NCBI GenBank assembly: GCA_049970095.1
Contig: JBMFNP010000001.1
Coordinates: forward strand, 18,912 to 82,911
Origin: Thermoplasmata archaeon
GTDB lineage: Archaea > Thermoplasmatota > Thermoplasmata > Lutacidiplasmatales > SKW197
Length of the DNA stretch: 64,000 bases
Direction: 5' to 3'
This document shows positions 4,675-49,657 of this stretch, piece after piece. Numbering within the stretch: position 1 is the stretch's first letter; the number at the start of each line of letters is the position of its first letter. Under the pieces are notes generated by a model. The model saw nothing but the letters and a program-made list of their open reading frames with translations, was not told where the DNA came from and made no database searches. A program made the translations under genes and the position numbers.

Positions 4675-6213
4675 TTGGGCTCTCAAATGCTTGCAAGAAA
4701 AACAGTGTTTGTAATCTTGAAAGAAGGGATTGCAGGTATTCTGGGCTTTATCACACTGTTTTTTGTTGCCAGATTTATGGGGGCAGAACCCCTTGGAAGC
4801 GTGGGTTTCGCATTGGCATTTGTAAATGTATTTAATATCGTGGCTGACATGGGTTTTAATGCTGCCCATGTGAAAAGGATGTCTGAAGGAAAGACACCAG
4901 AAAACTGTATTGCAGTCTATATCAGATTTAAAACCATACTCACAGTTGCAGCACTCGGCATTCTATTGCTAGTGCTTCTTGCTTTTGAGTTGCTGAAAAT
5001 ACAGTTTTATGACTCCACATACCCCGAAGTAATTTACATAATGCTCGGGTACTTCCTTCTTACCCAGATATTGTCAATCCCGAAATACACATTTGACGCC
5101 CGTCTCCAGATATACCGCGGGCAAATCGCTGCACTCGCTGGTGCAATTGGAAAAGACCTGCTTGTCATAAGTGCATCAGTGATAATGGCTGTGGGCACAT
5201 ACACCACATTTCAGAGAAGCATTGCACTTGCATGCGGGTATGTAATTGAAGTTTTAATTACAGCAATCATTCTCTATATTTTCTTTATTCGTAATGAAAA
5301 AATTGGAAAATTTGATAAAAATGTTGCAAAAACATACTTGAAATTCGCACTGCCGTTCTTTCCGATAGCGATCTTTACAATACTTTCTGTGAGTGCAGAC
5401 AGATTGACAATTGGTTATTTCTGGGATGCAAGAGAGGTTGGATATTACACAGCAGTCCAGCAGATTGCCAACATGCTTCTGGTAATCCAGAGTGCTACAA
5501 CCCTTGTGCTTTTTCCTGCAATTTCATCAGCTCATGCTAAAGGAAATAGAGAAGAAATTGTTAGATTAAGCAGTGAAGCCATCAGATACATACTCATTAT
5601 TCTGATACCCGTAGGTGCAGCAATCACTGTTTTTAGTGCGGGAATCATCCATGTGATTCTGAGTGATGAGTTTATTGTAGCAGAATACTGCTTCATATAC
5701 CTCACCTGGTATTTCATACTGGTCTCTCTAGCCAGTACTGCAGGAACAACGATTGGAGGTATGGATAGACCTGAACTTGGTGCAAAAATCACATTCGTTT
5801 CTGCGATTTCAAACATCGTTCTAAACTTCATGTTTGTGCCGCTCTGGGGGGCAACAGGTGCCGCAATAGCAACACTTATTTCAGGAGTTGTTTACTTCAC
5901 TCTGGTGAGATACTTTTCAAGAAAAATTCTTGGTTTCAACATATTTGGTTTTAGAAACCTGAAGACAGTTTTCGCAGGTATCCTTACTATTTTAGTGTTT
6001 TATGGCATAAAGATTATGTATTTTTCAAAGGTTGATGAGTTTAGATGGTACTCTCTGATTTTACTGCTAGGGGGTGTTGTGGGTTTGTTTGTTTTTATAC
6101 TCTGGCTTATTGGAGAGTTTGGCAGGAAAGAATTTGAATTTTTCGTGAAGAGCTTGCACATCGGAGAAATGCGAAAGGGAATTTTGGAAGAACTCCGTAC
6201 AAAGAATAATTAG
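4675..6213 (+). CDS. polysaccharide/oligosaccharide flippase (MOP superfamily, Wzx/PST family)
   Basis: 512-aa polytopic membrane protein (~12-14 hydrophobic helices) with the typical Wzx N-terminus (…LKEGIAGILGFITLFFVARFMGAEPLGSVGFALAF…). The true start may be the internal Met (MLARK). Confidence 0.7.
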   Translation: MGSQMLARKTVFVILKEGIAGILGFITLFFVARFMGAEPLGSVGFALAFVNVFNIVADMGFNAAHVKRMSEGKTPENCIAVYIRFKTILTVAALGILLLVLLAFELLKIQFYDSTYPEVIYIMLGYFLLTQILSIPKYTFDARLQIYRGQIAALAGAIGKDLLVISASVIMAVGTYTTFQRSIALACGYVIEVLITAIILYIFFIRNEKIGKFDKNVAKTYLKFALPFFPIAIFTILSVSADRLTIGYFWDAREVGYYTAVQQIANMLLVIQSATTLVLFPAISSAHAKGNREEIVRLSSEAIRYILIILIPVGAAITVFSAGIIHVILSDEFIVAEYCFIYLTWYFILVSLASTAGTTIGGMDRPELGAKITFVSAISNIVLNFMFVPLWGATGAAIATLISGVVYFTLVRYFSRKILGFNIFGFRNLKTVFAGILTILVFYGIKIMYFSKVDEFRWYSLILLLGGVVGLFVFILWLIGEFGRKEFEFFVKSLHIGEMRKGILEELRTKNN

Positions 6214-6218
6214 GGGTG

Positions 6219-6782
6219 TCATTTCGCTACAAATATATGGTACTTCTCCTTTGGATTTTCAAGTTCCAGTTTTATCCTATCTGCAATGAGCTTGTCAGGG
6301 GAATGAATTTTGACCCTGTTGCTGAGGTCCTCAAAGGATGTGAACTTTCCTTTCTTTCTTTCCTCCACAATCGCCCACATTGTCTTCTTCCCAAGACCAG
6401 GCAGGAGTTCAAGCATATGAAACCTTGTGGTAATTGGTTGCGCAGTATTGTAAAAATCTACAAACCGTTTTTCCTGTTCATGCACAATCTGGAGAATTAC
6501 ATAAGGGAGTTCCACCTGTGCAGTAGGTGTGAGTTCCTCATAACCGATTCTGCGTTTTATTTGGTGAATCTCTTTCCTTTGCTCTATGTTCTTTCCAATG
6601 TAAACACGGTCACCGATCGAGGGTGTTACATTCGGTTTGACAATAAGTTCAAACAATTTAAATTCCATATCCCCAATTGCAAGTGCCAGTGGTTCCCTTT
6701 TTATTCGCTTGTCATCAAATCTCCCCTGTGGCAAAAAATCAAGTATGTAGGCATACTCTTCATACCGTTCCATCAGCCTCAT
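6219..6782 (-). CDS. DUF655-family helix-hairpin-helix nucleic-acid-binding protein (conserved archaeal partner of rpoF/L21e)
   Basis: 187 aa with a C-terminal HhH motif (MLELLPGLGKKTMWAIVEERKKGKFTSFEDL). It sits immediately downstream of rpoF, as in the conserved archaeal cluster. The antisense ORF 6216..6830 is rejected. Confidence 0.7.
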   Translation of the reverse strand: MRLMERYEEYAYILDFLPQGRFDDKRIKREPLALAIGDMEFKLFELIVKPNVTPSIGDRVYIGKNIEQRKEIHQIKRRIGYEELTPTAQVELPYVILQIVHEQEKRFVDFYNTAQPITTRFHMLELLPGLGKKTMWAIVEERKKGKFTSFEDLSNRVKIHSPDKLIADRIKLELENPKEKYHIFVAK

Positions 6783-6797
6783 CTCCCAGATTTCTTT

Positions 6798-7124
6798 CTA
6801 CTCCTTCCCTGTGTATTTTTTCACAATTGAAAGAACGGTAGAAATTGTGTTCTCATCAAATGCCATCTCTTTCTGGAAAATTGCACGCACTTCTTCTGGT
6901 GTGGATGGTAAAAGGTCTGCCACCTTTACTGCATACTCCTCTTGAATTCCTGACTCCATAATTTTTTTAACAATTTCCACGGCAGTTTCCTTGCTTACTT
7001 TGGAAAAAGTGGTTGCGTGTTCCCTTGCCGTACTTGAAAATTTACCAAGTTCTCTTGTATTTGCTTCAGCATCTAGATATTCCTTTACCTCTGCGAGAGT
7101 AAGGTATTTTCGCATGAATTTCAC
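6798..7124 (-). CDS. rpoF: DNA-directed RNA polymerase subunit F (Rpb4 homologue)
   Basis: 108 aa. Its size, sequence character and position between L21e and DUF655 match the conserved archaeal L21e-rpoF-DUF655 arrangement. Confidence 0.7.
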   Translation of the reverse strand: MKFMRKYLTLAEVKEYLDAEANTRELGKFSSTAREHATTFSKVSKETAVEIVKKIMESGIQEEYAVKVADLLPSTPEEVRAIFQKEMAFDENTISTVLSIVKKYTGKE

Positions 7125-7421
7125 CTACTGAGAAACCCTTCTCAGATGTTGAGGTGCACAAATCACAACCTTGGGTTTGTTTCCCTCTCGCACCTCAACT
7201 AGATAGCATCTTCCTTGCATACCTACAATGGTTCCTGTGAGCCCGTGGAATCTTGGGTGTGGCATACCCTCAGGTGAGCTTGGTTCCAGGTGAATCGCAG
7301 CTTTTTCTCCAATTTCAAATTTCTGGAGATAGTGCGTAACAGGTGGCATGCCTCTCTCTCTTGGTTTTTTCCGAAGTATTCCGCGGGTCCTGCATCTTAT
7401 ACCTTTTGATGCCTTTACCAT
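7125..7421 (-). CDS. rpl21e: 50S ribosomal protein L21e
   Basis: 98 aa basic protein (MVKASKGIRCRTRGILRKKPRERGMPPVTHYL…GLTGTIVGMQGRCYLVEV), characteristic of L21e. Confidence 0.85.
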   Translation of the reverse strand: MVKASKGIRCRTRGILRKKPRERGMPPVTHYLQKFEIGEKAAIHLEPSSPEGMPHPRFHGLTGTIVGMQGRCYLVEVREGNKPKVVICAPQHLRRVSQ

Positions 7422-7423
7422 AC

Positions 7424-8653
7424 TTATTCCTCCAGCCCGTCATTTATCTTTATTACATCCAGTGCCTTTACCCTGCACGGAATTCCCAGTAATTCCGAAA
7501 TACTCGGAGTTGTGCGCCCCTCGTCGCCAGAGACCAATTCCTTCACATAGGTGCCTGATGCACATTCTATTTCCAGTTCTGCGGTGTTTCCGTGCAGCCA
7601 GTTAAGTTTTGCATCATGGATTCTTCTTTTTCTTGTAAGGTCTGAACGTCTGTGGAGTACTCGGTAAGGAGTTTTCTGATATATATCCTTTTCCCTGAGC
7701 TCGCAAAGAACACGCTCAAATCTTTCAGGAGACACTGGCTGATCAAATTCCACAAGTGCAATGTATCTTTTTGTGGCTTTTTCAGATTTTAATGATTCCA
7801 CATCTTTGTGTGTTGCAAATCTGAGCCCCTCTACTTCCACCATCTCCCTTGCATACTCGTTTATTTCCTCAGCAAGTTTTGCAAGGTCAAGTTTTCGTTT
7901 TACTGGCTCTCTTATTTCAAGAATAAAAGGTCTTCCATTTCCCAGCATTCTCACATCAATATCCTCCCTTCCCATTCCATGGAAAAAATGCTCTTTTCCG
8001 CCTGTTGCCTCAATAACCTTGCATGCAATGAGTTCCTGGACACTGGTCTCATACATCTTACCTGTGCCCCCGCATCTCCTGCAACCCTTGCCCCTGCAGT
8101 TTCTGCAATACCATCGGGTCTGGGGAATTCCTCGCACATATTTCCTGTATCTCCCATAAATAAATAGAGGTCTTATTTCCAGTTGAGCCACATCAAATCT
8201 TGTATCAATAATTACCACACAATCTGGCTCTGTGAAATTCACAGATTTTCCACTTATCTCTGCAATTTTTTTCCCTACTTCCCTGTTGAATTCGCTCTTG
8301 ATGGACTCTGCATTTCTGGCACCTAATTCAAGCCAGAGTTTTTCTTCGTAAGCAAGGATTTCTTCATCGTATTTTGAACCTACAAGGAATGTTTCCCATT
8401 CAACATTTTTGAGCACATTTATCCCGATTTCAGCGTATCTGTCAATTTTTCCAAATATTCCCTGACAGAGATTACACTGTGCGGGCTCCACATATTCATA
8501 AGCAGTTTCTGCAATAATCTTTGATGCACGCTGTGGATTGCTCAACCCGCTACCCACTTTTCCAAACAATCTTCCAAGGCAGTGGGCACAGAGACGCACA
8601 CCACTGGAAACTAATTTTTCAACAATTTTTTTATCTGCATCACTGAGAAACAT
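7424..8653 (-). CDS. pus10: tRNA pseudouridine(54/55) synthase Pus10
   Basis: 409 aa with an N-terminal Zn-binding THUMP-like region (CAHCLGR…CNLCQG) and a Cys cluster (CRNCRGKGCRRCGGTGK) before a TruB-like catalytic domain. It lies in the archaeal Pus10-L21e-RpoF neighbourhood. Confidence 0.8.
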   Translation of the reverse strand: MFLSDADKKIVEKLVSSGVRLCAHCLGRLFGKVGSGLSNPQRASKIIAETAYEYVEPAQCNLCQGIFGKIDRYAEIGINVLKNVEWETFLVGSKYDEEILAYEEKLWLELGARNAESIKSEFNREVGKKIAEISGKSVNFTEPDCVVIIDTRFDVAQLEIRPLFIYGRYRKYVRGIPQTRWYCRNCRGKGCRRCGGTGKMYETSVQELIACKVIEATGGKEHFFHGMGREDIDVRMLGNGRPFILEIREPVKRKLDLAKLAEEINEYAREMVEVEGLRFATHKDVESLKSEKATKRYIALVEFDQPVSPERFERVLCELREKDIYQKTPYRVLHRRSDLTRKRRIHDAKLNWLHGNTAELEIECASGTYVKELVSGDEGRTTPSISELLGIPCRVKALDVIKINDGLEE

Positions 8654-12044: not shown

Positions 12045-13952
12045 ATGGGTCTTGTCAGATTTGGGCCTCTTGTGCTTCGCTGGTGTTTGAACTGCAACAT
12101 ACCAGTAGTGGAACAGAGGGAGTGTGGAATCTGTAAATCGCAGACAGTTGAAGTTCAGGTAACCCCACCAGGGGATGTGAAAATTGCATTTAACAAGGAA
12201 CTTCGGCTTTTCAGAAAAATTCTTGATAAACAGTTTGGCAAGGGATGCGGAACAGCCCTTTTTCCAAGAAATAAACTGGTTGTCCTGAACCCTGTGCCCA
12301 GCATTGACAAGATGTATGAAGTTGTGATGGATGGGCAGGTGGTGGCATCTGTGAGGTATGATATAAAAAAAGGCTGGCAGACACTTCTGAGGATGGAAGG
12401 TGTTTTCAGAATTGAAAAAAATATCTCAAGGCAGTTTGTAGTAGCGGATGACGGTGCCATTGAACCCATCCTGAACGGAAGCAATCTGATGGCTGTCGGG
12501 GTGCTGGAAACATCAAATGATATTGCGGAAGGGGATGAGGTAATAGTTCTTGACAAAATGAAAAAGCCATTTGCAGTGGGTACTGCCAAGATGGATGCAC
12601 AAGAAATGAAATCTGCAATAAATGCGGGGGAAAAAAAAGGAGTGGCTGTGAAAGTGAGATGGAGAGAGGCATGGAGAAAAGCCAGAATCTTACAGGACAG
12701 AATTATAAGCTGGAAGCAGGTTGCAGAGGGGAGCAAAACTGCACTCCAGAACAAGGAACGGATGGCTTTGAATTTCATCCAGAATGTGGCAAAAAAATAC
12801 AACAAAGAAATCGCAGTTTCCTTTAGCGGAGGAAAAGATAGCTTGGTTACGCTTCTTCTCGTGCTGAAAGCAGGTTTTAAGCCCAGAATTTTATTTGTGG
12901 ACACGGGATTGGAACTTCCAGAAACCTTAGAATATGTGAAAAAAATTGCGGAAAAACTTGGAGTTGAAATAATAACAGAAAGTGCAGGAAACGCTTTCTG
13001 GGAAAACCTTGAGATGTTTGGTCCTCCTGGCAGGGACTTTAGATGGTGCTGCAAACTCTGCAAATTAGGTCCCACAACACGGCTAATCAGCAAAAATTTT
13101 CCAGATGGGGCTGTAGTATTTATCGGACAGAGGGTTTACGAGTCAGAACAGCGGGCACAGAAAGGCAACATATGGGAGAATCCTTGGGTCCCTGGACAGA
13201 TTGGTGCCTCCCCTGTGCAGTACTGGAATGCGCTTCACATCTGGCTCTACATTATGAAAGAAGGAATGGATGTGAATCCCTGGTATGCTGAAGGGATGGA
13301 AAGAATTGGGTGTTTTCTCTGCCCTGCATCCAGCATTGGGGACTTCATTATCATAGGCAAGAAATATGAAGGTTTAAAAAAATGGGAAAAGTACTTGAAG
13401 GAATATGCAGAAAAAAATGGTTTTGGAGAAGAATTCTTAAAGTATGCTCTCTGGAGATGGCGAAGGTTGCCCAGGGGAATAAAAGAATACATTGGAGAAT
13501 TTGAATTTGAAAGAAATGGAGCAGATGTGAAACTCAACCTTGCTGATGGTTATTCTCCATGCACCGGTGGTTATTCAATAGAAGGGGTTTACAATAGAAA
13601 ACTGGATATTGAAAGGATAGGAAACCTGCTGAATATCCTTGGAGCCTCAAAAATTGACAGAGAAAACAACCTTTGTGAGATAGAAGGCATCCAAATTTTT
13701 GCAGACGGTGCAGTAGTGGTGAAGGGAAATGATGAACAGGAGCTAAGAGCCAAGCTTACAAACATGCATTCCGTGGTAATGAAGGCACTTTTTTGCGTAA
13801 AATGTGGCATCTGTACAGGGAGATGTGCCCAGAAAGCAATCACACTTAAGGAAAAAGGCATCCACATAAATCCAGAACTCTGCATTCATTGTGGTAACTG
13901 TATCCAGCCATGTCCCGCACTGGTTTACAGGATGGATGCAGAAATCTGGTGA
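12045..13952 (+). CDS. PAPS-reductase-family PP-loop ATPase with N-terminal Zn-ribbon + PUA-like domain and C-terminal 2x[4Fe-4S] ferredoxin domain (paralogue 1)
   Basis: N-terminal Zn ribbon (WCLNCNIPVV…CGICKS). PP-loop AVSFSGGKDS. APS/PAPS-reductase-type cluster ligands RWCCKLCK…GCFLCP. C-terminal CVKCGICTGRCA…CIHCGNCIQPCP ferredoxin motifs. Confidence 0.8.
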   Translation: MGLVRFGPLVLRWCLNCNIPVVEQRECGICKSQTVEVQVTPPGDVKIAFNKELRLFRKILDKQFGKGCGTALFPRNKLVVLNPVPSIDKMYEVVMDGQVVASVRYDIKKGWQTLLRMEGVFRIEKNISRQFVVADDGAIEPILNGSNLMAVGVLETSNDIAEGDEVIVLDKMKKPFAVGTAKMDAQEMKSAINAGEKKGVAVKVRWREAWRKARILQDRIISWKQVAEGSKTALQNKERMALNFIQNVAKKYNKEIAVSFSGGKDSLVTLLLVLKAGFKPRILFVDTGLELPETLEYVKKIAEKLGVEIITESAGNAFWENLEMFGPPGRDFRWCCKLCKLGPTTRLISKNFPDGAVVFIGQRVYESEQRAQKGNIWENPWVPGQIGASPVQYWNALHIWLYIMKEGMDVNPWYAEGMERIGCFLCPASSIGDFIIIGKKYEGLKKWEKYLKEYAEKNGFGEEFLKYALWRWRRLPRGIKEYIGEFEFERNGADVKLNLADGYSPCTGGYSIEGVYNRKLDIERIGNLLNILGASKIDRENNLCEIEGIQIFADGAVVVKGNDEQELRAKLTNMHSVVMKALFCVKCGICTGRCAQKAITLKEKGIHINPELCIHCGNCIQPCPALVYRMDAEIW

Positions 13953-14004: not shown

Positions 14005-14481
14005 TTGATAAATATGCTACCAATACCAACAAAGTTCTTCGTGACTTCTGGGAAGGCAATAAGCAAGGTATCCGACCTGAACGCATTCGACCTGGCACTG
14101 TTGAGGGCTGGGATCGGTGAGCAGAACCTGGTTTCTGTATCCTCAATTCTGCCAGTTGGAATAAAGCAGGTGGAAAAGCGAACACTTCCCATGGGTGCAA
14201 TCACATACTGCGTGCTTGCCCAGCAGCGTGGCGGTGAGGGTGAAATGATTTCTGCAGGAATTGCTTATGCATTCAGAAAAGATGGGCTCGGAGGTTATGT
14301 GGCAGAGGGGCATATGCATGGCACCCAGAAAAGTTTAAAGGAGGTGCTTCGCTGGAAGATGGAGGAGATGGCAAAGCTGCGTGGTGTAGAACTGGAAAAA
14401 ATAAATTTTAAAACAGAAGAATTGGCAATTCCAATGGACCACTATGGGGTCTGTCTTGCAGCATGTGTGTTTATATTCTGA
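14005..14481 (+). CDS. pdaD: pyruvoyl-dependent arginine decarboxylase
   Basis: 158 aa. LNAFDLALLRAGIGEQNLVSVSSILP closely matches the PdaD self-cleavage region (…[26 protein letters not shown]…), including the Ser-Ser processing site. Confidence 0.9.
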   Translation: MINMLPIPTKFFVTSGKAISKVSDLNAFDLALLRAGIGEQNLVSVSSILPVGIKQVEKRTLPMGAITYCVLAQQRGGEGEMISAGIAYAFRKDGLGGYVAEGHMHGTQKSLKEVLRWKMEEMAKLRGVELEKINFKTEELAIPMDHYGVCLAACVFIF

Positions 14482-14484
14482 GTT

Positions 14485-15366
14485 ATGAAGATAGGAATCC
14501 TTACATACGATGATGAGTGGGCTGAGGAACTCATACACAATCTGAGTGTGCTTTTACCAGATGTGAAGACTGAAATCATTGGAATTTCAAATATGAATTT
14601 GGATGCTTGCATGGAATACAGGATAATTCTAGACAGACAATCATATCTTGACCCTTATCTGAGATGTGCAATGAAGCATGCTGCAATTCATGGAACATAT
14701 GTGATAAATAACCCTTTTTCCTGCTCTCTGGATGATAAATTCTTTTTTTATGGAATTGCAAGGAAACTCAAATTTCAGGTTCCAAAAACCCTGATGCTCC
14801 CACCTTTTGACCCTGATTATGAATTCGGACATGTGATTCCGCAACTCTCATGGGAATGGGTGGAGAAGGAAATAAGATTTCCAGCTGTGCTTAAGCCTGT
14901 GAACGGGTATGCATGGAGAAATGTGTATTTTGTGAACAATATAGAGGAACTCAAAGAAATTTATAAACAGACGGGAAGCGAAACCATGCTTCTCCAGGAA
15001 AAGGTGAATTATGAGGAGTATGTGCGTGCGTTCGTAGTTGGAAAAAAGGCAGTACTTCCTGTAAAATATTTGCCATCTGAACGAAAGTATTTTTCCATGG
15101 AAAATTTTCTATGCGAAAAGATGAAGGAAAAAATCAGAAAAATCTGTGTGAAGTTAAATACAATCCTTGACTATGACATAAACACCGTGGAAATTGGAAT
15201 TGAATCAGGTATTCCTTACCTCATTGACTTCTCAAACTATGTGCCAGAAATAAAGAGATACAATCTCCCTATTGAGTGCTACCACTGGGTTGTGGATAGA
15301 ATTACTGAATTGATTGTGAATTATGCCAGAAATCCGAAAAGGAACAGGAATATGTTTCCAATCTAA
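14485..15366 (+). CDS. ATP-grasp fold protein (RimK/glutathione-synthetase-like ligase)
   Basis: 293 aa in the ATP-grasp size range. It lies 3 nt downstream of pdaD, probably in the same operon. Confidence 0.55.
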   Translation: MKIGILTYDDEWAEELIHNLSVLLPDVKTEIIGISNMNLDACMEYRIILDRQSYLDPYLRCAMKHAAIHGTYVINNPFSCSLDDKFFFYGIARKLKFQVPKTLMLPPFDPDYEFGHVIPQLSWEWVEKEIRFPAVLKPVNGYAWRNVYFVNNIEELKEIYKQTGSETMLLQEKVNYEEYVRAFVVGKKAVLPVKYLPSERKYFSMENFLCEKMKEKIRKICVKLNTILDYDINTVEIGIESGIPYLIDFSNYVPEIKRYNLPIECYHWVVDRITELIVNYARNPKRNRNMFPI

Positions 15367-17735: not shown

Positions 17736-20700
17736 TTAGCGGACGATGGCTCCGCAGTATGGGCACACCACAAATTCGTTGCTGATTTCTTTTCCGCACT
17801 TCGGACATACCTTGCTGAGCGGTTTTTCAGGTGTTTCCATAACTGGTTCCGGTTTCCTTATCACTTTTTTCGGAGGAACAGGTGCCTGTGGTGGCGGTGG
17901 GACTTGTGCCTGCACTTCTGCCGGTGGTGAGGACTTCAAAACTACGGGTTTTGAGCGCGGTGGTGCATATGCTGGAGGTGGCTGGTATTGAGGTTGTGGG
18001 GGTGCATATTGAGGCAGGGGTTGCTGTACTGGTGGTCTATATTCTTCTGCCGGAGGTGCAGTTCTTACTGCTGGCGGTTGTTGTAGCATTGAAGTACCAC
18101 ATCTATAGCACACAGTTGCATATGCTTCATTGATGGCACCGCAACTCGGACATTTAACAGTTGCCCGTTTTGCCTTTTCTTCCTTGTTAAGCCACTGATT
18201 GTATGTCATGTATGTGGGCTGTGTTCTCCACCATCTCCAGAATGCGGCTTCAGAGAAACTTGCACCCATTTCCCTCTTTGCCTGTGCCCTGTACTTCTCA
18301 ACATATGCTTCGTATTGCTGGCGCATTGTTTTCTCATGACTCGTGGCTTCAACTTTCTTGCCAGTGAATGTTGTGCCACATTCTGGGCAAGTCTTGGCAT
18401 TTGCAGGAATCCACGCACCACACTCACTGCATCTTACTGTGCTAGTTTCGAATTCAGCACCGCATTTTGGACATTTTGTAGCATTTTCAGGAATTGGTGC
18501 ACCACATTCTCCACATTCGCCAAGTTTTCCAATACCCATTCTGGAAAGTAATAAAAGTACTACAATTACAACTACAACTATGATTATTATTATCACAATT
18601 ATAAGAATGAGCCACGATGGAATTCCTCCTTGCTGTGGTGCATTGACTTCCACCACATTGGGCACCTCGTAGGAGAGCGGGTTTACATCTGCACCCGCTA
18701 CCTCAAAATCAAGTATGTATTTGCCTGGCTTGTCAAACTTTGCATAAATTACAAACTGTCCATCCGAAGCCACAGTAGCAGGATATCTGGTTACGACATT
18801 TCCAGTGGATGCATCTTTGAGATAGAGAGTAACTCCCATCTGTATATCTAGATTTTCGGGTACCTTTACCTTCCCAACAAAGGTGCAATCTTCTGTTGTG
18901 GAGTATCCATCCGCTTTTATGAATGGCCGTGCATCCCAGTCAAGAGTCAACCTCTCTACGAAAATTGTATTGGAAGCATTCATGCCAGTATTGTTTACCT
19001 TTGCATAAATCGTGTGGCTGGCGTTGAGAAGTTTTGTGGTTACAACCCATGTGAATTCACATACAACCATACCTTTCCCTGGCACCTTCTGAATATTGGT
19101 CTTTCCAAGGAAGTTTGATTTTGTGAGACCATCAAGATAAAAGTCCACAGAAACACTTGAGGAATCAAGATCTCCGTCATTTGTGAGATTTACCCTGCAG
19201 ACAACTGTGGAACCGTACTGGGTTGAAGTGATCGGGGTGTTTTCTGTATCATAGAACCACACCTTACTCGCCATTGAGAGTTTAGCAGCGTACTTTACAT
19301 ATATATTGGTTTTAACTGCCTGTGTAGAGACGCCCTCTGTACATGAAGTTACCTGCACAGACACATTCTGGGAGCCACCTATGCCTGAGGGGATATCCCA
19401 ATTAATGCTTGCCACCGCTGTTGATTTTGCGTTTATTTTTGGAATTGTGGTTGTACCAATCTCACCAGCATCTGTGCTGAACACCACAACTACATTGGAT
19501 GCAAATCCGTTCCCATCGTTATAAATTTCCACACTGATTGTTGTGGAACCATTTTCAGTGGGTTCTGGAGATACAGTTAGGGCGCCAGCATTTATCTGCA
19601 AATCTGGGTATGTGATGATCACGGATTTTGTAGCAGTATTATCCCCCTTGTCTGAGATGGATTCTGTGGGTTCAGATGAAATTATGGATGCGGTGATTGT
19701 GTAATATGTTCCGGATGTGGGTGTCCATGAAACTTTTGCATCTCTCCTCTCTCCAATAGGGATGCTTGAAATGGTGTCTGTACCCAGATCACCGGATGCT
19801 GTACTGAATTTTACTATCACATTTCTTGCATCTCCGTCACCGCTGTTTTTAATTGTTGTGCGCACTTCTGCAGTTTGATTCACATTTACACTTTCGCTTG
19901 GTGCACCATTAACTAGCACAAATAGGAACTCAATTGAAAGAGAGGGTCTTCCTGCGATATTTAGGTTTGTGGAGTATGTGTTATCATTCTCACTCATTTC
20001 TGAAATGCTGTTATCTGGGTCCACTGTCGCATTGATGCTGAATATTCCCGATGCGTCAAAGGTGTATTGATAAACAAGATTCTGGCTTGAACCAGGTGTT
20101 ATGTCTGCAGGTAGAGAATCTCCGATGACAACACCATTTACTTCAAATCTAACAATTACACCCTTTGCCAGGGAAAGCCCATTGTTTTCTACACTCGCAG
20201 TCAGGTTGATAACATCTCCTTTTAGTGGCTGGGCAGGTGTTGTAAACAAATTGGTTATCTTCAAATTCGGAAGGTCAATTGAAATTCCTACGGGCGATGT
20301 TTCAAAGATGTTGTCTTCCTCAACCAAGTCAGGATATGGTGGGAGTGTAATGATTCCACTTCCTCTCTTAGTGTTCTGATAGGTGCAGTTTGCAATATAT
20401 GAGCCTATGAATATACTGTTTGGCAGTGTAGTCACATTAATAACATCAGAAGCCACAGGGTATCTGATTATTCCCGAAGCATCTGAGCGATTTGTTATTC
20501 CGTTTGCTGTAAGATACATTTTTATTAATGGATGTGCGTTGAGATCATTTGCAAGGGCTGCAAGGTTGTACTGGATCATAGAGGAAGAAGGAGTGTATTC
20601 CAGTGATGTGAGCTGGGCATTTTGAATTGGCATCCTATTCTGGTCATACACGGGAATCTTTGCCCAGCGGTATATAATTACCTGACTTGTGTTAAATGTA

Positions 20701-21944
20701 AAAATTGCAGGTGCATATTTCTGGCCATGGCCTGCAGCATCCAGCGGGGGTGTTTCTGCTTCATCAAATCCTACATTGAGAAGTTCCACTCTTGCGGAAT
20801 CGTAGAGCACCAGTTTATTTGATGTACCAAAAGAGAATACATTTGAATCCCAATCTATTGATATATTTGAGTTTATTACGGTCATCTGAGTGCTTCCATA
20901 CAATGTGAAGTTAAATTCATAGGCAGGCCTTACAATAACATCAAATCTTGTTATGGTTATATTTCCAGTAGTTCCATTATGGTTAAACCTGAACCTCAGT
21001 TTTTCCAGTCCCGCCAGTGTGGTTACAGAAAGCGGGATAACATCGCTCACCTGTTCACTAGCATTTGGTGTGAGCGGTAAATCCTCCCATGAAGTTCCTC
21101 CATTGTATGAAACCTCAAAACTTTTTGAACCATTATATTCTGATGTTGTGGTATAATCAATCTGGACAGATACTTTGCTGAGTTTCTCATATGCGATTTC
21201 AGTTGTATCCAACTGAGAGATGTTCAACCACTCCCCAGGATTGAGCTCTACATAACCTGGAAAGTCCTTTGGTGTAATCTGATAATCTACAATGTTTACA
21301 TTCTCATAGTATTTTTCAATTTTAGAATCTGCAATATATATCTTGGAGTTTATCGCAGTAATTACTGGTGCATCGTCATTGTCGTCTGTTTTTGCAGCAT
21401 CATTTGCCCATACAGAAGGCATTTCAGAAAGTCCTGTGATTGTGGATTCGTTCATGTACACTTCTGCTCCGTTAAGGTAGAGATATCCTGGAAACGAAAG
21501 TCTGGAATTTTTCATCACAATCTTTCCACCATTGCAGGTTAGATTGAATTTAAGATAGGGATTCACCATCATTACCGAGACGGTGATTGCACTGTCTTCC
21601 AGATATAGAATTCCACCCGAATTCACTACGAGGGTGTACTTTTTCTTTGGAGAATATGGATACACCCCACCGTCCTGAAGAAACTGAATTTCAATTCCTT
21701 TAACTGTCAGATTTCCACCAGAGTTTATTGTAATGTTTCCATCCATGCCTAAAATACCACTGGGTGCAGTTGAACGATCCAGTATTACAGTTGTATCCAC
21801 GACTAAATCATTTACAGAACTTTTGTTGCTTCCAGATTCGCTTGCCAGTATGCTCATGGAAAGCGGTAATGTGAGCAGCAATCCTATACACATTGCCCAA
21901 ACCATTTGCTCAGCTTGCTTTTTTGAATGCATCATACTTATCAT
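17736..21944 (-). CDS. giant type-I membrane surface protein: signal peptide, CARDB/beta-helix-like ectodomain, single TM, cytoplasmic tail with four double-zinc-ribbon motifs and Pro/Gln-rich linker
   Basis: 1402 aa. It has an N-terminal signal (…CIGLLLTLPLSMSILASESG) and CARDB-like repeats (e.g. LKGDVINLTASVENNGLSLAKGVIVRFEVNG). A TM helix IPSWLILIIVIIIIIVVVVIVVLLLL is followed by CGECGAPIPENATKCPKCG…CSECGAWIPANAKTCPECG…CPSCGAINEAYATVCYRCG…CPKCGKEISNEFVVCPYCG and a PPVQQPLPQYAPPQPQYQPPPAYAPP stretch. Confidence 0.8.
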   Translation of the reverse strand: MISMMHSKKQAEQMVWAMCIGLLLTLPLSMSILASESGSNKSSVNDLVVDTTVILDRSTAPSGILGMDGNITINSGGNLTVKGIEIQFLQDGGVYPYSPKKKYTLVVNSGGILYLEDSAITVSVMMVNPYLKFNLTCNGGKIVMKNSRLSFPGYLYLNGAEVYMNESTITGLSEMPSVWANDAAKTDDNDDAPVITAINSKIYIADSKIEKYYENVNIVDYQITPKDFPGYVELNPGEWLNISQLDTTEIAYEKLSKVSVQIDYTTTSEYNGSKSFEVSYNGGTSWEDLPLTPNASEQVSDVIPLSVTTLAGLEKLRFRFNHNGTTGNITITRFDVIVRPAYEFNFTLYGSTQMTVINSNISIDWDSNVFSFGTSNKLVLYDSARVELLNVGFDEAETPPLDAAGHGQKYAPAIFTFNTSQVIIYRWAKIPVYDQNRMPIQNAQLTSLEYTPSSSMIQYNLAALANDLNAHPLIKMYLTANGITNRSDASGIIRYPVASDVINVTTLPNSIFIGSYIANCTYQNTKRGSGIITLPPYPDLVEEDNIFETSPVGISIDLPNLKITNLFTTPAQPLKGDVINLTASVENNGLSLAKGVIVRFEVNGVVIGDSLPADITPGSSQNLVYQYTFDASGIFSINATVDPDNSISEMSENDNTYSTNLNIAGRPSLSIEFLFVLVNGAPSESVNVNQTAEVRTTIKNSGDGDARNVIVKFSTASGDLGTDTISSIPIGERRDAKVSWTPTSGTYYTITASIISSEPTESISDKGDNTATKSVIITYPDLQINAGALTVSPEPTENGSTTISVEIYNDGNGFASNVVVVFSTDAGEIGTTTIPKINAKSTAVASINWDIPSGIGGSQNVSVQVTSCTEGVSTQAVKTNIYVKYAAKLSMASKVWFYDTENTPITSTQYGSTVVCRVNLTNDGDLDSSSVSVDFYLDGLTKSNFLGKTNIQKVPGKGMVVCEFTWVVTTKLLNASHTIYAKVNNTGMNASNTIFVERLTLDWDARPFIKADGYSTTEDCTFVGKVKVPENLDIQMGVTLYLKDASTGNVVTRYPATVASDGQFVIYAKFDKPGKYILDFEVAGADVNPLSYEVPNVVEVNAPQQGGIPSWLILIIVIIIIIVVVVIVVLLLLSRMGIGKLGECGECGAPIPENATKCPKCGAEFETSTVRCSECGAWIPANAKTCPECGTTFTGKKVEATSHEKTMRQQYEAYVEKYRAQAKREMGASFSEAAFWRWWRTQPTYMTYNQWLNKEEKAKRATVKCPSCGAINEAYATVCYRCGTSMLQQPPAVRTAPPAEEYRPPVQQPLPQYAPPQPQYQPPPAYAPPRSKPVVLKSSPPAEVQAQVPPPPQAPVPPKKVIRKPEPVMETPEKPLSKVCPKCGKEISNEFVVCPYCGAIVR

Positions 21945-22070: not shown

Positions 22071-23015
22071 ATGGAACAAATAGGGGCTCATTTGAAGGCA
22101 AAGTTGCTAGTTAGTGGTACGGTGGATGTTAAGGTAAGATTGCCAGTGGGTTATGTGTGCAGAGATGCAGCAGGACCACATGGCAACAGAAAGAGTGTGT
22201 TTGTTAAGATTGGAAACCATAAAGTGAAATTGGGCGTGGGTAGATCAAACTATTCTATTGTGTCCCGTGGAAAAGAATACTATCTTTTAGAATCAGGAAG
22301 AGAGGTCTGCAGGGTAGAATTCTTGAAGCCGGTTTTCCATGCACCGGAAATGGCATTTTTCAATCTTGTGCCATACTGTGATTACGATTGTGCATTTTGC
22401 AATTTGCCACATGGAAAACAGAAGGAAGTTCCGAGTGTGCGGTATATTGAGCTTATCAGGGGAAACATTGACAAAATCAAGAGCATCGCTGTTACATCTG
22501 GCGTTAGCAATGTAGAAACATGCGTGAAACTTACTGGCAAATTTTTAACAGAAGTAAAGCAGTTTGCACTCCCAGTTGGTGTGGAGCCCTTTGTGAGTAT
22601 GCACTTTCAAATAGACTATCTAAAAAGTTGTGGTGCAGATGAAATCAAGATAAACCTTCACTCTTTTGATCCAAATGTGCTTGAAAAATATTGCCCAGCA
22701 TTTAAAAGGAACACTTTCTCACTTCTGGAACATGCTGTGAAGGTGTTTGGCGATGGAAAGGTGTGCACAAATGTGCTTGTTGGACTGGGTGAAAATATGG
22801 AAAACACAATTGCTGGACTTGAAAAATTAACAGAAATTGGTGTGCTCGCAAATCTGAGGTATGTGCATGGTTTTGCAGGAATGCCCCCAGAAAAACTGCT
22901 TTATTTGGCTAAGGAATATAAGAAAATCCTCATAAATTCAAATCTGAAACCTGTGATGAAAACAATGTGTCTCAGATGCACAGCCTGTGATATCGTGCCC
23001 TTTGTTGACATCTGA
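22071..23015 (+). CDS. radical SAM domain protein (CX3CX2C), function unknown
   Basis: CDYDCAFC motif at about residue 103 of the called ORF. The real start is probably an internal Met (…MAFFNLVPYCDYDCAFC…). A C-terminal Cys pair CLRCTAC is present. Confidence 0.65.
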   Translation: MEQIGAHLKAKLLVSGTVDVKVRLPVGYVCRDAAGPHGNRKSVFVKIGNHKVKLGVGRSNYSIVSRGKEYYLLESGREVCRVEFLKPVFHAPEMAFFNLVPYCDYDCAFCNLPHGKQKEVPSVRYIELIRGNIDKIKSIAVTSGVSNVETCVKLTGKFLTEVKQFALPVGVEPFVSMHFQIDYLKSCGADEIKINLHSFDPNVLEKYCPAFKRNTFSLLEHAVKVFGDGKVCTNVLVGLGENMENTIAGLEKLTEIGVLANLRYVHGFAGMPPEKLLYLAKEYKKILINSNLKPVMKTMCLRCTACDIVPFVDI

Positions 23016-34089: not shown

Positions 34090-34281
34090 TTTCCATCCTC
34101 CAATTTGGCTATGCCTGATTTTTTCAGTTTAACACCTACTCATTAATATAATTTTGCCTTCACCGGGTTTCATTGAGTGTTTCTCAAAACTGCCCTCTCA
34201 CCCAGGTACCATCTTTTTCTGCCGTCTTAGAAGTTTGAGGTCGTGGAAAAATCTATATCTCTTTGTAAACTTCGCCATTCA

Positions 34282-36135
34282 ATGCAAAAATCACATGAGC
34301 GCCGCACACAAATCTTCTGGTGCAGCAGGTGCAATGTTCCCATTCTCAGCGAAAAGTGTGGAATTTGTGGCAGCAATGGAAACAAGATTATGCTCCACCA
34401 TGGGAGAGAAATCAGGCCCGGGTTTGAGTACACGCTGAATAAAATCAACCAGATACTTGAAAAAAAGTATGGAGTGAAGGAGGCTTTGAATGGAAAACTT
34501 GTGCTTCTTCACAAAGTAGCAGGTATTGATAGGACAGAAGAAATAATTGTTGATGGAAAGATTTTTGGTACATTTTCCTACATACCTGAAGAGAGGGAAT
34601 TTCAGATTTTTCTGAGAAGTTACGGCGCTGCCTATCTGCGGGGGAAGGGAGCACATAAAAATATAGTAACTGTAAATGAGAAAGCACTGGAGAGACATCT
34701 GAAAAACACATGGATTTTTGCAGAGGAACTACTGGATATTGCAGAGATTTCTCCACATCAGGACATTATTCTCTCCATAGGTAAATACACAGGTGTAGGA
34801 ATCCCTAAATTCCATAGTAGGGAAAAAATTCCAAAAAAGTGCATAAAGGTAAGGGATATTGGGGTCTGTGAATTCCAGGAGAACAACCCTGATTTTCACA
34901 CGATAGTAAAGGCAAATGCAGATTATATTGATATTCTTGAAAAAACAGCAATATCGGAAATAAAAAGGACGCTGATGCAACATAAAAATATGAAAATTGC
35001 TGTATCTTTCAGCGGAGGTAAAGATAGTGCAGTAGCATTTCATCTTCTCAGCAAAGTGACAAGCCAGTTTGATGTTATTTTCGTGGACACAGGTCTTGAA
35101 TTTCCTGAGACGGTAGAATATGTGAAAAAAATGGCTAAGGGAAAGCCTCTCTTCATTCTGAAACCCGAACACTCATTCTGGGATCTTGTGGATTCCATGG
35201 GACCACCAGCAAAGGATTACAGATGGTGCTGCAAGGTATGCAAGTTAGCACCAGTTGCCAGCCATGTAGGTAAATATGGAGAAATTCTAACTGTTGAGGG
35301 TAGAAGAAGGGCTGAGTCCTTTGCAAGAGAGAAAATAAATTTGATTGAAAAAAATCCGTTTGTGCCAGGGCAAATACTCGTGAACCCCATAAGAAACTGG
35401 TGTGCATTTGAGATCTGGCTATACATTCTAAAAGAACATATTCCAGTGAATCCGCTTTACTTCCATGATTTTGAAAGAATTGGGTGCTATCTCTGCCCCT
35501 CTGCACATGCCTGTGAATTTGATGAGGTTGCCTCTCTCCATCCAGAAATGTATGAGCGCTGGCAGAATTATCTAAAATTTTGGGCTGAAAAAAATGGAAT
35601 GGACGAAGATTACTGGAGAAAAGGTTTATGGCGATGGAAAACTCCACCGAGGAAAATCAGGAGAGAGAAAAGCTGGGAGGAGAAAAGAAATATTCACATC
35701 AAGGAAAGCATCACATGCAATGGAGAATATTTGATTGATGGGAACTTCAATACTGGGTTGAGCCAGATAGAAATCGGAAATGCACTGGGAATCCTGGGAG
35801 AAATGAGATATCTTGAGAGCACTGGCACAATTATGATAAAGCTCAGAAAATCTAGAATTCTATTTTTTGCAAACTCTGATTTCTCTGTAGTCTCAACTAA
35901 CCGTGAGGAGGGAAGAAAACTTCTTGTAAAGATTATCCAGCAATTGCTGAGGGGGATGTTCTGCACATCCTGCATGATCTGCAAAAGGGCATGCCCAGTA
36001 GGGTGCATAGATATAAGGGATGGAAAACCAGAGTACAACCTTCAGAAATGCAAAAAATGTGGGCATTGTATTGAGGCGTGTGTTGTGGCGAGATACTGGG
36101 ACAAGCGGATTGCACTTGTTTTTTCCCACACATAA
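34282..36135 (+). CDS. PAPS-reductase-family PP-loop ATPase with N-terminal Zn-ribbon + PUA-like domain and C-terminal ferredoxin domain (paralogue 2)
   Basis: WCSRCNVPILSEKCGICGS Zn ribbon, AVSFSGGKDS PP-loop, RWCCKVCK…GCYLCP, and C-terminal CTSCMICKRACP…CKKCGHCIEAC. About 50% identical to 12045..13952 in the catalytic core. Start chosen at the Met aligned with paralogue 1 (track ORF begins at 34243). Confidence 0.8.
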   Translation: MQKSHERRTQIFWCSRCNVPILSEKCGICGSNGNKIMLHHGREIRPGFEYTLNKINQILEKKYGVKEALNGKLVLLHKVAGIDRTEEIIVDGKIFGTFSYIPEEREFQIFLRSYGAAYLRGKGAHKNIVTVNEKALERHLKNTWIFAEELLDIAEISPHQDIILSIGKYTGVGIPKFHSREKIPKKCIKVRDIGVCEFQENNPDFHTIVKANADYIDILEKTAISEIKRTLMQHKNMKIAVSFSGGKDSAVAFHLLSKVTSQFDVIFVDTGLEFPETVEYVKKMAKGKPLFILKPEHSFWDLVDSMGPPAKDYRWCCKVCKLAPVASHVGKYGEILTVEGRRRAESFAREKINLIEKNPFVPGQILVNPIRNWCAFEIWLYILKEHIPVNPLYFHDFERIGCYLCPSAHACEFDEVASLHPEMYERWQNYLKFWAEKNGMDEDYWRKGLWRWKTPPRKIRREKSWEEKRNIHIKESITCNGEYLIDGNFNTGLSQIEIGNALGILGEMRYLESTGTIMIKLRKSRILFFANSDFSVVSTNREEGRKLLVKIIQQLLRGMFCTSCMICKRACPVGCIDIRDGKPEYNLQKCKKCGHCIEACVVARYWDKRIALVFSHT

Positions 36136-48617: not shown

Positions 48618-49121
48618 ATGCACAGAAGTTTCCATAAACCGAAAAGTTTTTTATTCTCAAAAAAAGGTGCGGCGGATTTTTATGAAGAGATACCTACGGT
48701 TATCATCGCCATCACCTCAATCACGCTTTTCTTTCTCGCTGCAACAGTGGCATATGCCAATTACCAGGCAACTTACACGCACATAGACTACCGTGCAAAA
48801 TGCAATAAATTCCTGCGGGACATAAGAGGCTGGGAAAACCTAACATATGGGAACATGGAAGGGCTCTTTGATGCCAGAAAAGTGGCTACATACACACTGG
48901 ATAATCTCACCCGTGCGTTCCAGCCGGATTTTGATTTTGAGGTAAATATCACAGACACAAGCCCCTATTACTGGAAGTATAATCGTATTGTTAAAACAGG
49001 GACTATTCCTGACACCAGTTCACTCACCTACGGTGTGTATGTAATTTCATGTGGAATTGCAATATTTGTGAATGAAGAGGAAATACATGAAGGTAAATTA
49101 ACAGTAACCATCTGGAGGTGA
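48618..49121 (+). CDS. pilin-like / class-III-signal-peptide protein 1 of operon
   Basis: N-terminus …SKKG|AADFYEEIPTVIIAITSITLFFLAATVAY (basic residues, Gly, hydrophobic stretch). 167 aa, strong SD. Confidence 0.55.
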   Translation: MHRSFHKPKSFLFSKKGAADFYEEIPTVIIAITSITLFFLAATVAYANYQATYTHIDYRAKCNKFLRDIRGWENLTYGNMEGLFDARKVATYTLDNLTRAFQPDFDFEVNITDTSPYYWKYNRIVKTGTIPDTSSLTYGVYVISCGIAIFVNEEEIHEGKLTVTIWR

Positions 49122-49644: not shown

Positions 49645-49652
49645 GGAGGTGA
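49645..49652 (+). promoter_or_regulatory. Shine-Dalgarno GGAGGTGA 5 nt upstream of ATG 49658
   Basis: ttaaggaggtgagaaaaATGaataaagg. Confidence 0.65.
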
Positions 49653-49657
49653 GAAAA

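Follow-up and report, generated by a model that had tools for sequence, protein, structure and literature searches.

Among the enzymes of DNA phosphorothioation, BrxP and BrxC are needed for the modification in vivo, and together they confer it on a host without phosphorothioation genes (PMC12914056). A PAPS-reductase domain followed by an alpha/beta domain and a ferredoxin has been reported as the arrangement of BrxP and of some SspD proteins (PMC12839542). The archaeal proteins described below are called "putative APS/PAPS reductases" in the literature; the archaeal homologues form two clusters, which include the APS and the PAPS reductase of M. jannaschii, and each ANME-2 genome has two copies (PMC6286981). 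Reduction of APS and PAPS in vitro has been reported for the M. jannaschii relatives MJ0973 and MJ0066. The Vmax and kcat of MJ0973 are described as low (PMC3448663).

Here, we examined two ORFs encoded within a 64-kb stretch of DNA (hereafter, the window, meaning the whole stretch analyzed). Both lie on the forward strand, and the coordinates and lengths (635 and approximately 617 aa) given for them in the initial annotation proved correct. An in-frame GTG at position 34243 would give a longer form of ORF2 (34243..36135, 630 aa); the start at ATG 34282 was judged to be the right one because a public database protein of 617 aa (P0121) is 100% identical to ORF2 from this ATG and because the resulting N-terminus matches that of ORF1. 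ORF1 matched the NCBIfam models NF010368 (622 bits, cut-off 588) and NF010367 (585 bits, cut-off 456) over its full length. The best NCBIfam model for ORF2 was NF010366, and because its score (552 bits) was under the cut-off of 745 yet the alignment ran end to end (11–623 of 630), ORF2 was regarded as a diverged B-type member. These models belong to the archaeal family PRK13795 (NF010366–NF010369), labeled "hypothetical protein" in the database. With family E-values down to 1e−187, the features of the two ORFs are not due to chance. The initial annotation knew of no characterized member with the full architecture; the family itself was already present in NCBIfam. Literature searches for the family and for PUA combined with PAPS reductase, PP-loop, or 4Fe-4S found no paper on this architecture, and PUA is nowhere mentioned in the Dnd reappraisal paper. 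The features of the two genes are as follows.

12045..13952 (stop codon included), + strand: ORF1, 635 aa, A-type PRK13795 member
12045..12179, + strand: ORF1 Cys4 ribbon (residues 1–45; C14, C17, C27, C30), cysteines invariant in 91/91 sequences, short strands in the model
12180..12428, + strand: ORF1 C2 ("pre-PUA") domain (residues 46–128), as in ArcTGT/ArcS
12429..12665, + strand: ORF1 PUA domain (residues 129–207), Pfam PUA 8e−16
12801..13334, + strand: ORF1 PP-loop/PAPS-reductase-fold core (residues 253–430), PAPS_reduct 6e−43
13335..13529, + strand: ORF1 helical extension (residues 431–495), invariant W470-R471-W472
13530..13793, + strand: ORF1 small alpha/beta domain (residues 496–583), nearly invariant Cys506
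13794..13949, + strand: ORF1 2x[4Fe-4S] ferredoxin domain (residues 584–635), Pfam Fer4_7 1.5e−7
34282..36135 (from ATG), + strand: ORF2, 617 aa, B-type PRK13795 member
34282..34863, + strand: ORF2 Cys4 ribbon (C14, C17, C26, C29), C2, and diverged PUA-like domain (residues 1–194)
34987..35511, + strand: ORF2 PP-loop core (residues 236–410), Pfam PAPS_reduct 3.8e−47
35686..35961, + strand: ORF2 alpha/beta domain (residues 469–560), Cys478 equivalent to C506
35962..36132, + strand: ORF2 2x[4Fe-4S] ferredoxin domain (residues 561–617), Fer4 dicluster

In both proteins, a Cys4 ribbon and a C2+PUA module are thus followed by a PAPS-reductase-fold domain, then by a small alpha/beta domain, and finally by a 2x[4Fe-4S] ferredoxin; the AF2 models reached pLDDT 93 with pTM 0.92 (ORF1) and pLDDT 90.3 (ORF2). 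When residue conservation was scored over 91 family sequences, the PP-loop (SFSGGKDS, residues 259–266 of ORF1), the cysteine pair C335-C336, and C423 and C426 of the CxxC motif were invariant, as were the ferredoxin cysteines (C584, 587, 590, 594, 613, 616, 619, and 623); the ORF1 core also carries K340. By contrast, C339 of "CCxxC" was variable and kept in only 69–86%. The ORF2 counterparts are SGGKDS (244–249), C316-C317, C402xxC405, and the ferredoxin cysteines C561, 564, 567, 571, 590, 593, 596, and 600. Pfam matched the Fer4 dicluster in both ORFs and PUA in ORF1 only, and the NCBIfam ArcS C-terminal model matched over residues 51–205 (6.5e−12). In the B-type PUA region, which was examined with custom HMMs, the sequence signature of ORF2 is largely lost and the fold is kept in the predicted structure. 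The alpha/beta domain of ORF1 is predicted to have a strand-helix-four strands-helix topology, and by topology and aligned length the TBP-like fold matches appear to belong to residues 496–583. The ribbon, SGGKDS PP-loop, CC...CxxC, and C-terminal dicluster ferredoxin named in the initial annotation were therefore borne out by Pfam matches and by invariance in the 91 sequences, and the PUA fold that it had put forward for checking by structure prediction was predicted in both proteins. Its N-terminal ribbon and PUA-like region are present with the C2 domain between them, whereas the alpha/beta domain (about residues 496–583) had been overlooked in its three-part scheme.

The family ranges over Thermoplasmatota, Methanosarcinales, Asgard lineages, Thermococci, Thermoproteales, and Nitrososphaerota, and approximately 810 representatives at 50% identity reached E ≤ 1e−30. 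ORF1 and ORF2 share 31–32% identity overall and 47.7% in the PP-loop core, close to the previous estimate of about 50% for the core. The A/B duplication is ancient, and all catalytic residues are kept in both clades, which fits the earlier suggestion that the two paralogues have two targets. Short forms without the alpha/beta and ferredoxin domains, which stop after the helical extension and have no cysteine downstream of CxxC, are present in several lineages; these two parts are therefore not universally required.

The core, alpha/beta, and ferredoxin domains are, as judged by sequence searches in both directions, homologous to BrxP/SspD of DNA phosphorothioation. This homology of the PRK13795 proteins is a new point; the initial annotation had missed these nearest functionally studied relatives, which have all three domains in common with the family. 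The top PADLOC match was the BrxP model (203 bits for ORF1 and 179 bits for ORF2), which covered residues 220–621, i.e., the three domains, whereas CysH scored 68/91 bits and DndC 38–41 bits. In tblastn, the BrxP of a complete BREX-4 operon shared 29.5% identity across 98% of the core, and a PAPS-reductase ORF adjoining DUF4007 and a class-V aminotransferase shared 28.7%; the core was 27–30% identical to plasmid-borne BrxP/SspD-like proteins. In the reverse search, the BrxP and an SspD-like protein matched PRK13795 models best (174–198 bits), with weaker scores for DndC (43 bits for the BrxP) and CysH (56–65 bits). The PP-loop, C335, K340, R363/S367/R370, CxxC, and all eight ferredoxin cysteines are common to BrxP/SspD and the family. 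Methanosphaera BrxP differs from the PRK13795 proteins in that C336 and C506 are not kept; the absence of the latter is an observation against sulfur insertion.

The PADLOC scores and the likeness to plasmid-encoded proteins might suggest that ORF1 and ORF2 themselves modify DNA as part of a phosphorothioation-based defence (BREX type 4, Ssp, or Dnd-like), but we consider this highly improbable. BrxP carries or adjoins DUF4007 (SspB-like), as found in both the L081 and L082 loci, whereas no DUF4007 match was obtained in ORF1, ORF2, or their neighbors. BrxP also acts together with BrxC/SspC and often a cysteine desulfurase, in defence islands or on plasmids, whereas the window proteins have no such partners: the BrxC/SspC ATPase, PglZ, BrxL, DndD/E, and cysteine desulfurase were not found among the window ORFs scanned with Pfam, and BrxC/SspC, PglZ, BrxL, and cysteine desulfurase were absent from the recurrent neighbors in 80 genome loci. 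The genes flanking both ORFs are housekeeping genes, the spread across archaeal phyla and the old A/B duplication are not patchy and island-like, and the N-terminus is a predicted RNA-binding module. Because all the partner genes are missing, membership in a BREX/Ssp defence system was rejected.

According to the main rival explanation, which is the published one, the proteins are archaeal assimilatory sulfonucleotide reductases, with APS as the substrate of one paralogue, PAPS as that of the other, and sulfite as the product; the fused ferredoxin would replace thioredoxin as the electron source, and the N-terminal module would be structural or regulatory. The PAPS_reduct domain was detected in both ORFs (at about 1e−43 to 1e−47), and CC...CxxC aligns exactly with the [4Fe-4S] ligands of the APS reductases of M. 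tuberculosis ("CCRLRK...GCAPC") and P. aeruginosa ("CCGIRK...GCEPC"), with which the family likewise shares the lysine that follows CC and the R-x3-S-x2-R loop. Furthermore, the ANME-2b protein P0389, published as a "putative APS reductase", matched NF010366 (673 bits), as did ORF2, and it is through this match to the B-type model, together with the clustering in PMC6286981, that MJ0973 and MJ0066 were tentatively related to the A/B clades. Several features nevertheless make this explanation unlikely. The catalytic ECG[LI]H cysteine is absent from both proteins, the sole "ECG" being in the ORF1 ribbon. The PP-loop is complete and strictly kept, whereas true APS/PAPS reductases, which make no use of ATP, have lost it: in place of SGGKDS there is SFSGAEDV in the APS reductase of P. 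aeruginosa, SSSFGIQA in the PAPS reductase of E. coli, and ALIAGDVV in the enzyme from moss, while the ATP-using CysD retains SIGKDS. The reductase models scored far below their cut-offs for ORF1/ORF2 (PRK02090, 68/91 bits versus 154; TIGR02055, 49/74 versus 235; TIGR02057, 32/50 versus 254). The C2+PUA module is left without a role in a reductase scheme, and the BrxP/SspD homology runs on through two domains beyond the core. No sulfate-activation or sulfite-reduction gene (Sat, CysC, CysN, or Sir) was found by Pfam in 40 of the other large window ORFs or among the conserved neighbors of the 80 loci. Many host genomes have no sulfate-activation genes (PMC6286981), and M. infernus, which has related genes together with ATPS, APSK, and Fsr, does not grow on sulfate (PMC10322725). 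On these sequence features, ORF1 and ORF2 do not belong to the classical assimilatory APS/PAPS reductases that depend on thioredoxin. The initial annotation had suggested the same with regard to assimilatory PAPS reductases, and this stands on the intact PP-loop, the missing ECGLH cysteine, and the lack of sulfate-assimilation genes in the window; the clear CysH orthology in a sulfate-assimilation context that it had set down as a counter-sign was not found.

For the gene neighborhood, the ORFs of the 80 genome loci and the window were clustered by all-against-all BLAST. Synteny was lineage-specific, with the most frequent neighbor family reaching just 15/80 loci, and the neighbors that recurred were genes for a small nucleotidyltransferase, an aminotransferase of class I, MetRS, and the mevalonate pathway. 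The conserved neighbors of the 80 loci included no cysteine desulfurase, sulfur carrier, tRNA gene, or other sulfur-relay or sulfate gene, and no tRNA gene lies within the 64-kb window. The small nucleotidyltransferase, putatively RibL-like, occurs within 1–4 kb in 15/80 loci from two distant lineages. It might point to PP-loop chemistry other than sulfur insertion, such as adenylyl transfer (FAD synthase/CysD-like) or a reductive or amidating reaction that consumes ATP and acts on an RNA nucleotide or small molecule; the Fe-S clusters would then do no more than transfer electrons. Consistent with such chemistry, three Fe-S clusters in line suggest a redox reaction and would be superfluous for a plain O-to-S exchange with sulfide, and one short form (P0349) is fused to an EF-1A/CysN-like C-terminal region. 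We nevertheless hold this alternative to be improbable. The nucleotidyltransferase association is weak and lineage-specific, the relatives with three consecutive domains in common (BrxP/SspD) are sulfur-inserting enzymes, and a [4Fe-4S] cluster beside a PP-loop site is otherwise known, in these folds, from the sulfur handlers APS reductase, DndC, TtuA, NcsA, and LarE. A C-terminal cysteine desulfurase domain is also present in some homologues (PMC6286981). Among nine unusually long family members that we scanned, no such fusion was seen; they contained inserts, one doubtful primase-like N-terminus, and one EF-1A_C fusion.

On balance, we favor the reading that ORF1 and ORF2 are anciently diverged housekeeping enzymes that catalyze ATP-dependent sulfur insertion into RNA, probably tRNA, at a base or in the backbone. 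The RNA-directed, sulfur-transferring PP-loop enzyme proposed in the initial annotation has been strengthened by the intact PP-loop, the PUA fold, and the absence of ECGLH, and its function is still deduced from homology and architecture. In the mechanism that we envisage, the ribbon, C2, and PUA would grip the acceptor stem/3′ end of tRNA, as in archaeosine tRNA-guanine transglycosylase. The PP-loop (SGGKDS) would bind ATP and adenylate a target nucleotide oxygen with departure of pyrophosphate; this oxygen may be a base carbonyl (cf. TtuA/ThiI) or a non-bridging oxygen of the backbone phosphate (cf. the proposal for BrxP/SspD/DndC). Sulfide or a persulfide, the latter possibly carried on Cys506 of the alpha/beta domain, would then displace AMP beside a [4Fe-4S] cluster on C335/C336/C423/C426. 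The C-terminal ferredoxin would put this site in contact with electron carriers of low potential, for instance for reductive release of sulfide from a persulfide, and the two paralogues may serve different RNA targets or sites. Points against this reading are the in vitro activities reported for the two M. jannaschii relatives, the existence of the short forms, the four apparent cysteine ligands of the cluster, and the lack of a sulfur-relay or tRNA gene among the conserved neighbors. Nor do we know of a sulfur modification in archaeal tRNA that is still orphan and tied to the PRK13795 phyletic pattern.

In a more specific and rather doubtful form of the proposal, ORF1 and ORF2 would be RNA phosphorothioate synthases that use BrxP/SspD-like adenylate-then-sulfurate chemistry, with C2+PUA aimed at the tRNA backbone. 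To our knowledge, the backbone phosphorothioate reported in RNA is enzymatically orphan. Under this form of the proposal, PRK13795 would supply its missing enzymes and might be the ancestral stock of the DNA-phosphorothioation defence enzymes, with a separate site or RNA class for each of the two paralogues.

At stake is the annotation of an ancient, archaea-wide family (approximately 810 clusters at 50% identity) that is labeled "PAPS reductase" everywhere, a label that has entered the pathways of sulfate assimilation reconstructed for methanogens, ANME, Thermococcales, and Asgard archaea. The combination of a BrxP/SspD sulfur-insertion module with a tRNA-binding module recasts the question as one of RNA modification. 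If base thiolation is true, the family would represent tRNA thiolases of a new class, with the ferredoxin built in; should the sulfur go into the backbone, it would contain the first RNA phosphorothioate synthase and the evolutionary source of DNA-phosphorothioation defence. If neither is true, a widespread mis-annotation is still corrected.

When compared with known systems, ORF1 and ORF2 differ from CysH, which has the ECG[LI]H cysteine and a degenerate PP-loop and lacks their four extra domains. The tRNA thiolases TtuA/NcsA/TtcA have, like PRK13795 (SGGKDS in 91/91), a canonical SGGxDS PP-loop. However, together with archaeal ThiI (TtuI), they constitute another branch of the PP-loop superfamily (TtuA model, 31 bits for ORF2 against a cut-off of 450), and they have neither a PUA module nor a fused ferredoxin. 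At the cluster, TtuA/NcsA/TtcA have three cysteines and a free iron, whereas PRK13795 has four candidate ligands, as in APS reductase, and therefore no obvious free iron for sulfide. BrxP and a subset of SspD resemble ORF1 and ORF2 in the PAPS-reductase-fold with SGGKDS, the small alpha/beta domain, and the C-terminal eight-cysteine ferredoxin-type region; the window proteins are distinguished by the N-terminal ribbon, C2, and PUA and by their archaea-wide housekeeping spread. The catalytic domain of ORF1 and ORF2 is unrelated to the TGT domain of ArcTGT, and the C2+PUA tandem, C-terminal in ArcTGT/ArcS, is N-terminal here and preceded by the Cys4 ribbon. Nevertheless, like ArcTGT/ArcS, both proteins have C2 and PUA domains in tandem, from which tRNA binding is predicted.

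The two paralogues are both encoded on the forward strand, as follows:

12045–13952, +: ORF1, 635 aa, with Pfam matches to PUA (8e-16, residues 132–202), PAPS_reduct (6e-43), and the 4Fe-4S dicluster
34243 (GTG start, 630 aa) or 34282 (ATG start, 617 aa), +: ORF2, open reading frame with Pfam matches to PAPS_reduct (4e-47) and the 4Fe-4S dicluster, and none to PUA

The 617-aa form of ORF2 is present unchanged in public data (protein P0121), and its start aligned with the N-terminus of ORF1. The two proteins aligned end to end with 31% identity (E 5e-97), which was 47.7% in the PP-loop core, approximately 10% in the linker helix, and 25–30% elsewhere. In an alignment of 91 sequences from the A-type clade (ORF1) and B-type clade (ORF2), the four ribbon Cys, S-F/Y-S-G-G-K-D-S, C335-C336, C423/C426, and the eight ferredoxin Cys were invariant, and C506 was an additional conserved Cys (100%/97%). 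Because the ORFs, Pfam matches, and invariant motifs all agree with it, the domain and motif description in the initial annotation was correct for the parts it named, but it omitted the C2 domain and an extra alpha/beta domain. TBP-like structural matches fit, by topology and length, a strand-helix-four strands-helix unit at residues ~509–583. A PUA region had also been assigned to both copies; this overstated the signal for ORF2, although structure comparison of both models predicts a PUA fold in each. The A-type PUA HMM matched only 16 of the 78 B-type sequences, whereas the C2 HMM matched all 78 and the alpha/beta-domain HMM matched 74. No solved structure of a full-length relative was found.

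The PRK13795 family is already in databases, with its function uncharacterised. ORF1 exceeded the cut-offs of NCBIfam NF010368 and NF010367 (PRK13795 “hypothetical protein” equivalogs), and ORF2 matched NF010366 over its full length, under the cut-off. Homologues number in the thousands (~810 clusters at 50% identity and E ≤ 1e-30 in an exhaustive profile search), and the sole name given to them is “PAPS reductase family protein.” In reference genomes, they range across Thermoplasmatota, Methanosarcinales, Asgard lineages, Thermococci, Thermoproteales, and Nitrososphaerota. The A/B duplication is old and both copies have been maintained, because both types occur in Thermoplasmatota and Methanosarcinales and family members are paired in two loci: adjacent, divergent A-type and B-type genes in Methanoperedens (L051; 2797–4719, −, and 5989–7833, +) and two adjacent, divergent members in Methanomethylophilaceae (L060; 4070–5905, −, and 5998–7908, +). 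These pairs could reflect joint regulation or a heteromeric enzyme. Short forms of 470–500 aa, which end after the WRW motif and have neither the alpha/beta nor the ferredoxin domain, occur in ANME-2, Methanoregula, Hodarchaeota, and Methanomassiliicoccales. One short form (P0349, 733 aa) is fused C-terminally to an EF-1A/CysN-like region (Pfam GTP-eEF1A_C, 5e-20), which could be genuine, in which case it recalls CysD-CysN, or an error of gene calling. The family is otherwise archaeal, but a B-type member also lies on a 6183-base contig (CAVHHN010000115.1, locus L080) of an assembly labelled “Faecalibacterium sp. CAG:74”; mis-binning of a gut Methanomassiliicoccales contig, not a bacterial gene, is the probable explanation.

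In the analysis of Yu et al., archaeal homologues formed two clusters together with the APS and PAPS reductases of M. jannaschii, and each copy was proposed to act on one of the two substrates (PMC6286981). Additional Fe-S domains were pointed out, as were a cysteine desulfurase domain at the C-terminus of some homologues and the lack of sulfate-activation genes in many host genomes; the PUA module went unnoticed (PMC6286981). P0389, their ANME-2b “putative APS reductase,” belongs to the B type and is short (NF010366, 673 bits). The cluster site is genuinely APS-reductase-like, its CC...CxxC Cys aligning at residue level with the cluster ligands of the M. tuberculosis and P. aeruginosa APS reductases, and we therefore retain the proposal that the homologues are APS and PAPS reductases, but as an improbable one. 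At the position of the family SFSGGKDS, the P. aeruginosa APS reductase has SFSGAEDV, the E. coli PAPS reductase SSSFGIQA, and the moss enzyme ALIAGDVV, whereas ATP-using CysD retains SIGKDS. ORF1 and ORF2 lack the C-terminal ECG[LI]H Cys on which CysH enzymes carry the sulfo-intermediate, and CysH-type models scored the two proteins at 49–91 bits against cut-offs of 154–254. The M. jannaschii APS reductase has a low Vmax and kcat (PMC3448663). M. infernus possesses homologues together with ATP sulfurylase, APS kinase, and Fsr but fails to grow on sulfate, and the physiological role of its homologues was called open by the authors (PMC10322725).

No sulfate-assimilation genes lie beside ORF1 or ORF2. 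ORF1 is flanked by an SPFH protein and an arginine decarboxylase, and ORF2 by a large surface protein and an amidohydrolase. Immediately 3′ of ORF1 on the same strand are the following:

14005–14481, +: pyruvoyl-dependent arginine decarboxylase (agmatine synthesis)
14485–15366, +: weakly ATP-grasp-like protein, 4 bases from the decarboxylase gene

This pair did not recur next to the family gene in 80 related loci, across which no neighbour occurred in more than 15. In two distant lineages, a putative RibL/FAD-synthetase-like nucleotidyltransferase of ~150 aa lies within 1–4 kb of the family gene (loci L006, L007, L009, L012, L014, L019, and L020; Asgard loci L027–L029, L035, L036, L040, L046, and L054), accompanied in the Thermoplasmatota loci (mostly Methanomassiliicoccales) by a RibB-like gene. 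The remaining window is housekeeping (Pus10, Trp/Tyr-RS, Asp/Asn-type aaRS, CoaBC, PurD, and transporters). Its translation-related genes (7424–8653, −; 22071–23015, +; 23017–24138, −; 28968–30281, +), none of which adjoins either paralogue, comprise Pus10 (tRNA pseudouridine 54/55 synthase), a radical SAM protein beside a Trp/Tyr-type tRNA synthetase, and an Asp/Asn-type class II synthetase. The window also encodes very large predicted surface proteins at 17736–21944 (−), 30991–34089 (−), and 46305–48449 (−); one of 1402 aa has CARDB repeats and several zinc ribbons, one of 1032 aa is Asn/Thr-rich and carries a membrane anchor at its C-terminus and a Lys/Glu tail, and another is a clostripain (C11) peptidase that has CARDB domains too. 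At 53975–54457 (+), directly upstream of a ZnuA/ABC zinc-uptake operon, this archaeal genome encodes a protein that has a glycoside hydrolase family 25 (lysozyme-type muramidase) domain (8.5e-35) and may be an antibacterial enzyme. A 1415-aa ORF (49625–53872, +) had no Pfam match at 1e-6, nor did the small ORFs upstream of it (48618–49121 and 49126–49644).

Against the PADLOC BrxP model, ORF1 scored 203 bits (E 2e-60) and ORF2 179 bits over residues 220–621, that is, the core, alpha/beta domain, and ferredoxin; the SspD and DndC models gave 48–64 and 38–41 bits, respectively. This architecture agrees with the literature on BrxP and some SspD (PMC12839542). When plasmids were searched by tblastn with the core-to-ferredoxin region, three proteins covered at least 95% of the query. 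The first is the BrxP of a complete Methanosphaera BREX-4 operon (BrxP, 1186-aa BrxC-like protein, PglZ “BREX-4,” and BrxL). The second is an unannotated Treponema ORF that heads an Ssp-type cluster, with DUF4007, a 1201-aa protein, and a class-V aminotransferase encoded after it. The third is encoded by a stand-alone gene of the 18-kb Methanobacterium congolense plasmid II (L083, 7980–9125) and, at 381 aa, consists of the core, alpha/beta domain, and ferredoxin; it adjoins a CARDB protein and an Hjc resolvase, and has no ribbon/PUA module, DUF4007, or BREX or Ssp partners. In a joint alignment with the BrxP/SspD-like proteins, the PP-loop, C335, K340, R363/E366/S367/R370, R420-G-C423-x-x-C426-P, and the eight ferredoxin Cys were invariant, whereas the Methanosphaera BrxP has Thr at the position of C336, and among the plasmid relatives only the Treponema protein has a Cys aligned with C506. 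Reciprocally, the best matches of the BrxP/SspD-like proteins were the PRK13795 models (174–198 bits, through the ferredoxin end), with well lower scores for DndC (43 bits, BrxP) and CysH (56–65 bits). In Bacteroides, DNA phosphorothioation needs BrxP with BrxC; together they confer it on a host without phosphorothioation genes, and a route through an adenylated intermediate is cited there (PMC12914056).

ORF1 and ORF2 each have a tRNA-type binding module joined to the nucleic-acid sulfur-insertion core of BrxP/SspD. The simplest reading, every functional step of which we infer, is ATP-dependent sulfur insertion into RNA, in which sulfur and electrons would be managed by the [4Fe-4S] site and ferredoxin domain, and each of the two paralogues would have its own target. 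The earlier interpretation as an RNA thiolation-type enzyme or redox-coupled sulfonucleotide reductase is partly supported and, for the function we infer, sharpened by the BrxP/SspD link. The target atom would be either the carbonyl of a base, by chemistry of the TtuA/ThiI type, or a phosphate oxygen of the backbone, the BrxP/SspD option. By analogy with the latter, ORF1 and ORF2 may put sulfur into the RNA backbone phosphate, which is the most novel option because an RNA backbone phosphorothioate has been reported whose enzyme is not known (PMC8341892). The family supplies a concrete enzyme candidate for an orphan RNA modification, and bears on the acknowledged question of what “APS/PAPS reductase” homologues do in archaea unable to assimilate sulfate. 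Compared with CysH, the family has the same CC...CxxC cluster ligands as the APS reductases, but keeps a full PP-loop, altered in the CysH enzymes compared, and lacks ECG[LI]H. With BrxP/SspD, it shares the sulfur-insertion core, but every DNA-system partner is missing from the window and a tRNA-type binding module is present. The family is a variant of the PP-loop/[4Fe-4S] nucleic-acid sulfurtransferase theme that is new relative to the known systems.
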